Sequence record: OL825705.1
Strand: one strand, 5' to 3'
Source: Escherichia phage vB_EcoM_DE7
DNA length: 64,000 bases
Shown: one piece after another, positions 13,628 through 15,215 of the stretch
How the letters are laid out: each line of letters begins with the position of its first letter
How positions within the stretch are numbered: the first letter of the stretch is position 1
The notes under the pieces: generated by a model
Told to the model about the DNA's origin: nothing
The model's input: only the letters and a program-made list of their open reading frames with translations
The model's database searches: none
Position numbers and translations under genes: made by a program

Positions 13628-13704
13628 GCACCTATAGCCCAACTGGTAGAGGCAGCAGACTTAGAATCTGCTCAGTGTGAGTTCGAATCTCTCTAGGTGT
13701 ACCA
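13628..13704 (+). tRNA. tRNA with Leu anticodon TAG but short (5-nt) variable loop; A73 discriminator
   Basis: Perfect anticodon stem GCAGA/TCTGC, loop CT-TAG-AA; T-loop TTCGAAT; CCA encoded. Confidence 0.5.
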
Positions 13705-13711
13705 AATTAAT

Positions 13712-13787
13712 GCAGGTGTAGCAAAATGGTTATGCGGCTGACTCTTAATCAGTAAGACGATGGGTTCAATTCCCTCCACCTGTACCA
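13712..13787 (+). tRNA. tRNA-Lys (anticodon CTT)
   Basis: Acceptor GCAGGTG/CACCTGT, loop CT-CTT-AA; same T-arm architecture as the TTT Lys tRNA. Confidence 0.6.
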
Positions 13788-13793
13788 AACATT

Positions 13794-13869
13794 GGGGATG
13801 TAGTTTACATGGTTAAAACATAAGTTTTGCAAACTTAAGTACAGGGTTCAATTCCCTGCTTCTCCACCA
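13794..13869 (+). tRNA. tRNA-Ala (anticodon TGC)
   Basis: D-stem GTTT/AAAC, anticodon stem TAAGT/ACTTA, loop TT-TGC-AA; T-arm CAGGG-TTCAATT-CCCTG. Confidence 0.65.
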
Positions 13870-13875
13870 ATTAGT

Positions 13876-13950
13876 GCATCCATAGTTTAAACGGGAAAAT
13901 TACAGTCTTCCAAACTGAGGTTGAGGGTTCGATTCCCTCTGGATGCTCCA
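13876..13950 (+). tRNA. tRNA-Gly (anticodon TCC)
   Basis: Perfect acceptor GCATCCA/TGGATGC, loop CT-TCC-AA, T-arm GAGGG-TTCGATT-CCCTC. Confidence 0.65.
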
Positions 13951-13957
13951 AATTAAT

Positions 13958-14034
13958 GCTGCTTTCGTATAATTGGCTATTACACATCCCTTGTAAGGAT
14001 GGAAATGCAGGTTCGAGTCCTGTGAGCAGCACCA
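13958..14034 (+). tRNA. tRNA-Thr (anticodon TGT)
   Basis: Perfect anticodon stem CATCC/GGATG, loop CT-TGT-AA, T-loop TTCGAGT. Confidence 0.7.
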
Positions 14035-14129
14035 ATTCAGAGGTCAAGTGAAAGACCGCTGGTGTCAACTGAAGACCGTAACAAATTCCACGGAGTTGAG
14101 TTAGCGGCACAACTTCAGACCTCTTTCAT

Positions 14130-14204
14130 ACTCGCTTAGTTTATATGGTAAAACATCACCCTTACAAGATGAAGAAAAAGGTTCAAGTCCTTTAGTGAGT
14201 ACCA
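14130..14204 (+). tRNA. tRNA-Val (anticodon TAC)
   Basis: D-stem GTTT/AAAC, loop CT-TAC-AA, T-loop TTCAAGT, CCA encoded. Confidence 0.6.
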
Positions 14205-14205
14205 T

Positions 14206-14283
14206 GTTCCAGTATCCCAATTGGCAGAGGATGCAAGCTCAAACCTTGTACTAGTGACGGTTCGAATCCGTCTTGGAACACCA
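14206..14283 (+). tRNA. tRNA with Leu anticodon CAA but short (6-nt) variable loop; Leu-like D-loop AATTGGCAGAG, A73
   Basis: Acceptor GTTCCAG/TTGGAAC, anticodon stem GCAAG/CTTGT, loop CT-CAA-AC, T-arm GACGG-TTCGAAT-CCGTC. Confidence 0.5.
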
Positions 14284-14397
14284 ATTTTGGGAGAGCACTA
14301 TGAGTGATAAGTCAATAGCAAAAAAGTTTAGAGCGTCATACCTAAACAGACGTAAAAACAAAGATTGTGAAAAACTGTATGGTGTTCTTGTAGGTAA

Positions 14398-14473
14398 GCA
14401 GGATTAGTTCAAATGGATAGAGCAACAGTCTACGAAGCTGTTAATAGGGGTTCGAATCCCTTATCCTGCGCCA
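14398..14473 (+). tRNA. tRNA-Arg (anticodon ACG)
   Basis: Perfect acceptor GCAGGAT/ATCCTGC, loop CT-ACG-AA, T-arm AGGGG-TTCGAAT-CCCTT. Confidence 0.7.
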
Positions 14474-14492
14474 ATTTAAAGAGGCTATTTAG

Positions 14493-15050
14493 ATGAGATA
14501 TTTGAAGTATGCTTCATGGATTTTCTTAGCTTTGTTAGAGCCATTTGCAGCAATCTTAGCAGTTATCTTAGCACCTTTTGTAGTTCCATTTTACAGTGAG
14601 AAGAAAGGACACTTACCTTTTGGATTCAGATGGATGGAGACATATGACAACCCAATTGATGGTGATAAAGGTCATGTCAAACGATGGGCTAAGATTAGAA
14701 AGATTGGTAAGCTTGGTGTCTATATGCAGAGAGTTGGTTGGCTCTGGAGAAACAAAGCTTATAACTTCTCTTACCATGTGTTAGGAAGAGATGTGAAAGA
14801 TGTTACTAAGTGGAAAGGTAATATCAACGTAAGTTCTAACCCTGAAGATAATCAGACAGGTTATCTCCTAATGTGGAACAGTAATGCTTGGGGATTATTT
14901 GCTTTTATCCCATCTATTAAAATCTTTGGTAAACAATTCTACTGGAGAATTTATGTTGGGTGGAAACTAAAAAGTGTTGTCCCAGAAGAAAGAGCATTCT
15001 CAAGGGAAAGAGTTATGTTGGCATTCTTTATTCATCCACTGAGAAAGTAA
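14493..15050 (+). CDS. putative membrane protein embedded in the tRNA array (185 aa)
   Basis: ATG with AAAGAGG RBS; N-terminal hydrophobic helices (WIFLALLEPFAAILAVILAPFVVPF); Trp-rich. Confidence 0.6.
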   Translation: MRYLKYASWIFLALLEPFAAILAVILAPFVVPFYSEKKGHLPFGFRWMETYDNPIDGDKGHVKRWAKIRKIGKLGVYMQRVGWLWRNKAYNFSYHVLGRDVKDVTKWKGNINVSSNPEDNQTGYLLMWNSNAWGLFAFIPSIKIFGKQFYWRIYVGWKLKSVVPEERAFSRERVMLAFFIHPLRK

Positions 15051-15058
15051 AGATTTAA

Positions 15059-15134
15059 AGGGGATTAGTTTACAAGGTTAAAACCTCGGTCTTTGAAATC
15101 GAAGAAGTTGGTTCAATTCCAACATCCCCCGCCA
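15059..15134 (+). tRNA. tRNA-Gln (anticodon TTG)
   Basis: D-stem GTTT/AAAC, anticodon stem TCGGT/ATCGA, loop CT-TTG-AA, T-arm GTTGG-TTCAATT-CCAAC. Confidence 0.6.
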
Positions 15135-15136
15135 AT

Positions 15137-15215
15137 GCTCCATTACTCCAATTGGCAGAGAGGCCAGACTTAAAATCTGTGTTATGTATCGGTTCGAATC
15201 CGATATGGAGTACCA
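15137..15215 (+). tRNA. tRNA with Leu anticodon TAA but short (8-nt) variable region; Leu-like D-loop, A73
   Basis: Acceptor GCTCCAT/ATGGAGT, anticodon stem CAGA/TCTG, loop CT-TAA-AA, T-arm ATCGG-TTCGAAT-CCGAT. Confidence 0.5.

Follow-up and report, generated by a model that had tools for sequence, protein, structure and literature searches.

The DNA analysed here is a stretch of 64,000 nucleotides (the window) from Escherichia phage vB_EcoM_DE7 (sequence record OL825705.1), a Felix O1-like myovirus with a G+C content of 39%. Its tRNA gene array contains three genes with leucine anticodons, referred to as Leu(UAG), Leu(CAA) and Leu(UAA), which lack the long variable arm of bacterial tRNA-Leu (Table 1). 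An earlier note, made from the letters alone, had proposed such tRNAs with the anticodons TAG, CAA and TAA; ARAGORN places genes with these anticodons at exactly the same positions, and the Rfam tRNA covariance model (RF00005; gathering score 29), which matches all three end to end, agrees. Megablast with positions 13000-16500 returned 297 phage records, with 94-98% identity to Salmonella phage SP116, Felix O1 and many Felixounavirus genomes. The latter matches comprise Escherichia, Salmonella and Shigella phages, and most of their records annotate 'tRNA-Leu (x3)'. As tRNA-Leu the three genes are thus already annotated in hundreds of GenBank phage records; their architecture is unannotated.

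Table 1. Features of the tRNA gene array and its surroundings, by position in the window
Feature	Position	Strand	Call or remark
DUF2828/DUF7788 protein ORF	9379-10794	+	just upstream of the array
tRNA gene array	10960-16410	+	24 tRNAs by ARAGORN, one more by Rfam
HNH endonuclease ORF	11054-11410	+	inside the array
tRNA with anticodon UUC (Glu)	11412-11486	+	Rfam 55.4 bits; missed by ARAGORN
tRNA-Tyr(GUA), long arm kept	11880-11967	+	ARAGORN; 88 nt
Partial tRNA-like piece	12223-12280	+	Rfam 22 bits
Candidate sigma-70-like promoter	12733-12761	+	consensus scan; TTGACA, 17 nt spacer, TATAGT; 11/12 positions
Non-canonical tRNA-Arg(UCU)-like gene	12966-13047	+	not annotated; missed by ARAGORN; Rfam tRNA-Sec 23 bits, E = 0.38
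tRNA-Ser(UGA), long arm kept	13287-13376	+	ARAGORN; 90 nt
tRNA-Leu(UAG), type I	13628-13704	+	ARAGORN; Rfam RF00005 57.3 bits
tRNA-Leu(CAA), type I	14206-14283	+	ARAGORN; Rfam RF00005 43.6 bits
DUF7338 ORF	14493-15050	+	inside the array
tRNA-Leu(UAA), type I	15137-15215	+	ARAGORN; Rfam RF00005 47.5 bits
DUF7217 ORF	15502-16236	+	inside the array
tRNA-Ser(GCU), long arm kept	16238-16330	+	ARAGORN; 93 nt
Terminase gene	16855-18456		downstream of the array

Leucine tRNA genes on a type I frame

Up to the encoded CCA end, Leu(UAG), Leu(CAA) and Leu(UAA) measure 74, 75 and 76 nt, respectively, and a long arm therefore cannot fit. The variable loops are UCAGU, ACUAGU and GUUAUGU, so that the spacing between the anticodon and T stems is 5, 6 and 7 nt, in keeping with the 5-8 nt given in the earlier note. 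Each anticodon has the same position in ARAGORN and in the Rfam model and is presented in a 7-nt loop with U33 (CUUAGAA, CUCAAAC and CUUAAAA, in the order given). The acceptor stem begins with G1-U72 in Leu(UAG) and Leu(UAA) and with G1-C72 in Leu(CAA), and it ends in all three with the A73 noticed earlier, directly followed by the encoded CCA. The universal tRNA nucleotides are intact throughout, and the stems are flawed only by a U/U in the T stem of Leu(UAG) and a C/U at 27:43 in the anticodon stem of Leu(UAA). Folding with the covariance model, which the earlier note had suggested as a check, gives the cloverleaf with the Leu anticodons and no alternative anticodon, and comparison with related phages, suggested there as well, shows the nearest homologues all annotated as tRNA-Leu. 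An alternative fold or another isotype was considered and is rejected: both tools give the same anticodon, the short length has no space for an arm, and only Leu tRNAs are found among the homologues. The tRNA-Ser and tRNA-Tyr genes of the same array were correctly described as keeping their long arms, with variable regions of 15-21 nt.

At the level of sequence all three Leu genes possess U8/A14, A15 and U48, G18G19, A20a and A73. The D arm reads GCC-CAACUGGUAGA-GGC in Leu(UAG), UCC-CAAUUGGCAGA-GGA in Leu(CAA) and CUC-CAAUUGGCAGA-GAG in Leu(UAA), that is, a 3-bp stem closing an 11-nt loop C-A-A-Y-U-G-G-Y-A-G-A, and within the window this Leu-type D arm is restricted to the three genes. A Leu-like D loop had been ascribed to two of them; the likeness is borne out, but it extends to all three. 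For comparison we used E. coli K-12 leuQ, leuP, leuV, leuZ, leuW, leuX and leuU together with the tRNA-Leu genes of phages T4 and T5. These type II tRNAs share with the phage genes the Leu anticodons, U8, A73, U48 before the T stem and the encoded CCA, and their D arm is of the same design, with a 3-bp stem, an 11-nt loop N-A-A-Y-Y-G-G-Y-A-R-A, and G18G19 and A20a in the same register. G1-U72 is also found in E. coli leuZ and leuU. The difference lies in the variable region, which in the E. coli, T4 and T5 tRNAs (85-87 nt) comprises 12-17 nt with a paired extra arm of 3-5 bp, as compared to 5-7 nt in the window. Overall identity to the K-12 genes is only 52-67%. A recent copy of a host gene was considered as the origin and is rejected on this low identity and on a blastn search of 5,426 E. 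coli genomes with Leu(UAG), which gave no match.

The nucleotides retained are those relevant for leucine identity. E. coli leucyl-tRNA synthetase (LeuRS) reads A73, A14, A15-U48, G18G19 with U55/C56, and A20a, and of these A73, A15-U48, G18G19 and A20a are essential (PMC9976931; PMC6614811). The enzyme ignores the anticodon, the sequence and fold of the long arm are unrelated to charging, and arm-less truncations stay active (PMC9976931; PMC6614811); the long arm is typical of E. coli tRNA-Leu, yet it is no identity element (PMC9976931). The earlier description of Leu-like bodies without the type II arm agrees well with these rules, since the E. coli identity set is matched in the D arm, at A73 and at U48. 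Judged from their sequences, the phage tRNAs have lost only the dispensable part of tRNA-Leu. E. coli LeuRS also charges laboratory constructs of E. coli tRNA-Leu from which the long arm was removed, provided that A73 and the tertiary contacts between D and T loop are kept (Larkin 2002, Asahara 1998, Tocchini-Valentini 2000; summary in PMC9976931), and exactly this set is kept in the phage tRNAs. Type I tRNA-Leu as such is known from animal mitochondria and from Streptomyces coelicolor. The mitochondrial form, such as human mt-tRNA-Leu(UUR), draws its identity from A73 and A14 without a long arm (PMC9976931), but differs from the phage tRNAs in having a dedicated mitochondrial LeuRS and a relaxed structure with mismatches, and there is no specific sequence resemblance.

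All three genes are 95-100% conserved in relatives. At >=90% identity Leu(CAA) occurs in about 249 phage records (Erwinia phage relatives show 84%), and Leu(UAA) is found in 252 records at >=95% identity, as compared to 92 records at >=90% identity for the Leu(UAG) allele. The smaller number is explained by replacement at the Leu(UAG) slot. Phage JohannRWettstein, a close relative, has Leu(CAA) and Leu(UAA) genes identical to those of the window. Its Leu(UAG) slot is filled by another short-armed tRNA of wholly different sequence, and the identity of the flanks extends on either side right to the ends of the tRNA. Two such cassette-like swaps of single tRNA genes were observed between the window (13628-13704 and 12966-13047) and JohannRWettstein (L258, 5183-5260 and 4524-4600); the swapped Leu(UAG) and Arg(UCU) genes of that phage are unrelated in sequence to their counterparts in the window. 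Genes for HNH endonucleases are scattered through such arrays.

Short-armed tRNA-Leu across phages

The short-armed Leu tRNA is no oddity of this window but is widespread in phages. Blastn with Leu(UAG) found annotated tRNA-Leu genes of short length in Mycobacterium (Bixzunavirus), Streptomyces and Gordonia phages, with further matches in Enterococcus phages (Herelleviridae), Cronobacter and Klebsiella phages (Vequintavirinae), Pseudomonas phages (Otagovirus), a Prochlorococcus cyanophage and a crAss-like phage. The hosts of phages with this architecture belong to the Actinobacteria, Firmicutes, Cyanobacteria, Bacteroidota and Proteobacteria. Nine arrays were fetched and analysed with ARAGORN, which called 18 short-armed Leu tRNAs with a plausible cloverleaf and 73-77 nt to A73. 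The exceptions were an 86-nt type II Leu(UAA) in an Enterococcus phage and an 89-nt, poorly paired call in a Gordonia phage that carries no Leu annotation in its record. The Ser and Tyr tRNAs of these nine arrays keep the arm in all cases. In phiEa104, from the Erwinia phage branch of the same subfamily, the short-armed Leu has entirely different acceptor and T stems, which are nonetheless paired.

Common structure is demonstrated by an alignment of 57 distinct short-armed phage Leu tRNAs (79 columns). The invariant positions are U8, G18, G19, A35, U48, G53, U55, C56, A58, C61 and A73; conservation of A14, A15 and A20a reaches >=90%. In a four-arm cloverleaf without extra arm, 97.9% of the cells hold standard pairs as compared to 58% in shuffles; 19 of the 20 pairs show changes on both sides, and the covariation score was matched by none of 500 shuffles. 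As a control, sliding the partners by 1-3 columns lowers the pairing to 36-46%. The short-armed structure lies well outside the reach of chance. The first acceptor pair (columns 1 and 78) is G-U in 30 of the 57 sequences and G-C in 23. Among the short-armed phage Leu tRNAs called by ARAGORN, 47 of 56 have a 5-nt variable loop and 55 of 56 have U48; A73 occurs in 54 of 56, the two others being frame shifts of the call. The anticodons of the collected members are exclusively leucine anticodons, of all six kinds (UAG, UAA, CAA, CAG, GAG and AAG).

Membership of the window genes in this family was assessed with a covariance model built from 50 short-armed phage Leu sequences, none of them from Ounavirinae, so as to provide a held-out test. 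Leu(UAG), Leu(CAA) and Leu(UAA) obtained 84.5, 73.2 and 72.1 bits and were the top three of the window, the next tRNA scoring 55.0 bits. The type II tRNA-Leu of E. coli and T4 ranked next after the phage type I genes, with 50-63 bits despite their inserted arm. The outcome was mixed with a profile hidden Markov model (HMM) that uses sequence only and was built from 117 bacterial tRNA-Leu bodies, stripped of the arm and with a masked anticodon: among 24 tRNAs, Leu(UAG) came first, Leu(UAA) third and Leu(CAA) 17th. For the orthologues in Shigella phage Sf14, the tRNAscan-SE isotype scores are highest for Leu (67.4, 49.1 and 60.2; PMC12482277).

The distribution of arm lengths between viruses and cells was surveyed with a pattern neutral to arm length (TGGTAGA, 9 nt, YTYARR, 13-36 nt, GTTCRANTC). 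It gave >=120 loci in IMG/VR and likewise >=120 loci in a control set of one genome per bacterial or archaeal species, and the counts in Table 2 are from the 120 first matches in each. One D-loop variant was selected by the pattern, and the fractions are thus indicative. Among the matches listed, 35 of 170 viral Leu tRNAs were short-armed as compared to 0 of 124 in the bacterial control (Fisher p = 1e-9 for all, 2e-6 for the pattern-matching ones only), and the contrast between virus and cell is clear despite the sampling. The viral loci that hold few tRNAs probably represent host genes next to prophages. Where viral loci carried >=8 tRNAs, again among the matches listed, none of 24 Ser tRNAs and one of 14 Tyr tRNAs was short. 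The single short tRNA-Tyr(GUA) has a 4-nt variable loop and is located in a 24-tRNA array (L033, IMG/VR contig 3300024257_000005).

Table 2. Arm classes of Leu tRNAs among the matches listed in the census (type I, <=8 nt; intermediate, 9-11 nt; type II); the sample is selected by the pattern and fractions are indicative
Sample	Leu tRNAs	Type I	Intermediate	Type II
Viral, all	170	35	10	125
Viral loci with >=8 tRNAs	69	19	5	45
Leu tRNAs of these loci outside the pattern	36	11	3	22
Viral loci with <=3 tRNAs	59	3	1	55
Bacterial control	124	0	6	

The short arm is a general pattern of phage tRNA-Leu that apparently has gone unreported. No earlier description of short-armed phage tRNA-Leu was found in the full-text literature, older and subscription literature lying outside the search, and the variable region goes unmentioned in the Sf14 paper (PMC12482277) and in the eLife paper on phage tRNAs (PMC10264068). 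The advance is recognition of a pattern rather than of a new mechanism, for the genes are considered ordinary in function. In textbooks and recent papers, bacterial tRNA-Leu is described as type II with hardly an exception. The tRNA-Leu genes are all short-armed in hundreds of sequenced phages of E. coli and Salmonella, and the same architecture recurs in phages of at least five bacterial phyla. Two possibilities follow: natural type I tRNAs are substrates for bacterial LeuRS enzymes in general, or these abundant and conserved genes have another role. The contrast of Leu with Ser, for which the arm was never lost, and with Tyr (1/14 short) can be viewed as a natural experiment, and it fits the identity rules derived from mutagenesis. 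From a practical viewpoint, phage tRNA annotation and isotype models should admit short-armed Leu, and the compact tRNAs are possible scaffolds for the engineering of leucine or suppressor tRNAs in E. coli.

Charging, decoding and the missing arm

Taking the evidence together, we consider the three genes to encode working leucine tRNAs that are charged by the host LeuRS, with a probability of roughly 0.8. They would represent three phage-encoded leucine elongator tRNAs on a type I frame, transcribed as part of the array and processed down to the encoded CCA. The Leu genes are 1-8 nt away from the neighbouring tRNAs and on the same strand as the flanking ORFs, and a polycistronic precursor is therefore the obvious route. 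The promoter-like site at 12733-12761, which lies within the array ahead of the Leu genes, is conserved in JohannRWettstein and is a candidate start of this precursor; in the consensus scan, the total of promoter-like sites across the region was no higher than in shuffles. LeuRS of the host (E. coli or Salmonella) would then charge the phage tRNAs with leucine. A crude scan for a phage-encoded LeuRS found no ORF of >=250 aa with both HIGH-like and KMSKS-like motifs in the window, which covers 64 kb of the ~86-kb genome. For charging in vivo, tRNA-dependent lysogeny might have offered proof, in that mycobacteriophage Gaia replaces the host tRNA-Leu(CAA), but the Gaia copy has 83 nt and is type II, and this line of evidence was set aside.

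In decoding, Leu(UAA) would read UUA and UUG, Leu(CAA) would read UUG, and Leu(UAG) would read CUA and CUG and possibly CUU. Reading of CUU by UAG requires U34 to be modified as in the host tRNA-Leu(UAG). The codon usage of the phage fits such a set. The 63 ORFs of the window (16,773 codons) contain 1344 Leu codons, distributed as TTA 28%, CTT 28%, CTG 14%, TTG 12%, CTA 11% and CTC 6%; in E. coli, CUG makes up about half of the Leu codons. The codons dominant in the phage are served in E. coli K-12 by the single-copy genes leuZ, leuX and leuW.

Several observations weigh against host charging and ordinary decoding. Leu(UAG) has A37 (loop at 13660-13666 of the window, after G36), as does T5 tRNA-Leu(UAG), whereas E. 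coli leuW has G37, the m1G37 site, and the decoding properties may differ as a result. Three differences from the host loop are given for the Leu(UAG) orthologue in the Sf14 paper (PMC12482277). The sequence-only HMM that ranks the other two genes high puts Leu(CAA) just 17th of 24, and the viral counts come from 120 first-matched loci picked out by the pattern and are no full count. Most directly, the natural S. coelicolor tRNA-Leu(CAA), of type I, could not be charged by E. coli LeuRS in the work of Fan et al. (2019), who describe the enzyme as charging type II only (PMC6614811); earlier work by the same authors, as cited there, has the leucine-specific domain of the E. coli enzyme favour a large variable region. 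The S. coelicolor tRNA is instructive for comparison. It is chromosomal, not phage-borne as far as reported, and it coexists with type II tRNA-Leu under a single LeuRS, for which a five-nucleotide loop including nucleotide 48 is the minimum for charging (PMC6614811). Its 5-nt loop is ACAGC, while the phage family commonly has NCAGU, and it has C48 instead of the phage U48 (PMC6614811). Considering C48, and A73 that is unused by its own enzyme, the negative result with E. coli LeuRS may not carry over; the S. coelicolor tRNA may lack the E. coli hinge signals which the phage tRNAs keep. The result of Fan et al. nevertheless remains a real caution.

The same failure of E. coli LeuRS on one natural type I tRNA-Leu (PMC6614811) is one argument for supposing that the phage tRNAs are not leucine acceptors at all, but are charged by another synthetase, with partial recoding of UUR and CUN codons, or are uncharged decoys, processing signals or regulators. 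The isotype margin is likewise thin for the Sf14 orthologue of Leu(UAG), at 67.4 for Leu against 65.7 for Ile2 (PMC12482277). However, identity nucleotides that are invariant or nearly so in 57 sequences, from phages of five phyla, are hard to explain if LeuRS is blind to them, and the family employs all six Leu anticodons. By the identity rules of E. coli, the synthetases for Val, Ile, Met and Phe accept A35 but also require C36, U36 or G34, and these are absent from the phage tRNAs. About 80% of the 1344 Leu codons of the window are readable by the three tRNAs if UAG also reads CUU, and missense insertion would therefore damage the phage proteins. The encoded CCA, G18G19 and an undamaged T loop are consistent with a role in translation, and the crude motif scan already mentioned detected no window ORF with both class I synthetase motifs. 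A role other than leucine acceptance is thus very unlikely. Decaying pseudogenes, or artefacts of tRNA finders with Leu anticodons arising by chance, could be suspected from the labels tRNA-OTHER, Pseudo or Undet that some GenBank relatives give to a few array genes, and from Rfam scores of 43.6 and 47.5 at the low end of the array. These scores are well above the gathering threshold, however, and the three genes are the top three with the model of the short-armed family. Conservation of 95-100% in hundreds of relatives, and the still paired stems of entirely different sequence in phiEa104, oppose decay, which is effectively refuted by the compensatory changes that keep four stems in 57 sequences; we regard it as next to negligible.

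Working leucine tRNAs being the preferred reading, the missing arm may be understood from leucine identity: nothing in the bacterial identity set calls for the arm, and it would have been lost repeatedly in phage lineages for that reason. On this simplest view, the Ser and Tyr tRNAs keep theirs because seryl- and tyrosyl-tRNA synthetases use the arm. Bacterial SerRS reads the long arm itself, and bacterial TyrRS contacts it. Tolerance alone leaves the absence of short-armed Leu from the bacterial sample unexplained, and this gives room for an adaptive interpretation, concerned with why the arm is gone rather than with what the genes are. Loss of the arm might allow escape from host or phage factors that sense it, such as tRNA nucleases or tRNA-modifying toxins, so that Leu codons could still be read when the host tRNA-Leu is attacked or degraded. 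The viral enrichment (35/170 against 0/124 among the matches listed) is not obviously predicted by neutral loss, for bacterial LeuRS would tolerate the loss in cells too, and the existence of several unrelated short-armed families, with two unrelated alleles at the same Leu(UAG) slot in close relatives, suggests that such tRNAs were acquired or retained more than once. Phage tRNAs have been argued to dodge anticodon nucleases through loop changes (PMC10264068), and human SLFN11, according to work cited in PMC13462974, prefers to cleave type II tRNAs. Against this, a bacterial nuclease or toxin specific for type II tRNA-Leu was not found in the literature examined, and two studies of bacterial Schlafen proteins report cleavage in the anticodon arm or T loop with broad targets. 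T4 and T5, though much attacked by tRNA-targeting defences, keep type II tRNA-Leu; about two thirds of the Leu tRNAs in viral arrays, among the matches listed, are still type II; and intermediate arms of 9-11 nt occur in both viruses and bacteria. The deletion bias and fast evolution of phages could yield the same enrichment without selection. An adaptive origin of the arm loss appears rather unlikely. Its most specific version, improbable on present evidence, would have the phage supply, as a counter-measure, a replacement Leu set that is chargeable by host LeuRS yet invisible to host or phage factors sensing the extra arm. If this holds, phage-host conflict would widely involve attacks on tRNA-Leu that depend on the arm, a front not recognised so far, and E. 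coli LeuRS would charge natural type I tRNAs efficiently, contrary to the published type II-only statement.

The remaining array and a tRNA-Arg(UCU)-like gene

Among the other features of the array, CCA is encoded at the 3' end of all 24 tRNA genes called by ARAGORN; it is absent from many actinophage homologues. The 25th tRNA, found by Rfam, has the loop CCUUCAA, with C at the universally U position 33, where the Sf14 orthologue has CUUUCAA. The partial piece at 12223-12280 consists of T arm and 3' acceptor strand only and is probably the remnant of a lost tRNA gene. The DUF2828 protein was compared with the 'Ro-like RNA binding protein' encoded beside the tRNA array of Gordonia phage Forza, and no pairwise similarity was detected (E = 1.1).

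The gene at 12966-13047 may be the more unusual feature of the window. With identical flanks, it occupies the slot that in JohannRWettstein holds a canonical 77-nt tRNA-Arg(UCU). It is present in 262 phage records from several families, conserved at 85-88% in jumbo Asteriusvirus, Justusliebigvirus, Mydovirus, Sugarlandvirus and Serratia phages and at 84% in a Streptomyces phage, and the copies elsewhere are almost always unannotated or labelled tRNA-OTHER. In IMG/VR a motif scan recovered it at 67 viral loci (median, 8 tRNAs per locus), and a canonical tRNA-Arg(UCU) stood alongside in just 2 of the 67. The structure, as read from 41 distinct sequences, comprises a 7-bp acceptor stem in which all pairs covary, a T arm, A73 and CCA in the window copy, and a 5-bp hairpin with the invariant loop CUUCUAA, hence the anticodon UCU. 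The D arm is absent, 7 nt leading from the acceptor stem to the anticodon stem. Around the anticodon hairpin lies a 3-bp helix (columns 11-13 with 40-42); one pair of this helix is invariant C-G and the other two covary, with 0 mismatches in 82 cells. An invariant, D-loop-like UAAnUGGAGUAU lies between this helix and the T stem. The A20-like nucleotide, C35, U36 and A/G73 match the identity set of bacterial ArgRS, and AGA accounts for 45% of the Arg codons in the window. Probably, the gene encodes a tRNA-Arg(UCU) for AGA codons with a rewired core. One further copy, on the minus strand of L276 (IMG/VR contig 3300020037_006570), matches in its 5' half as far as GUAA and is divergent thereafter; it may be truncated.

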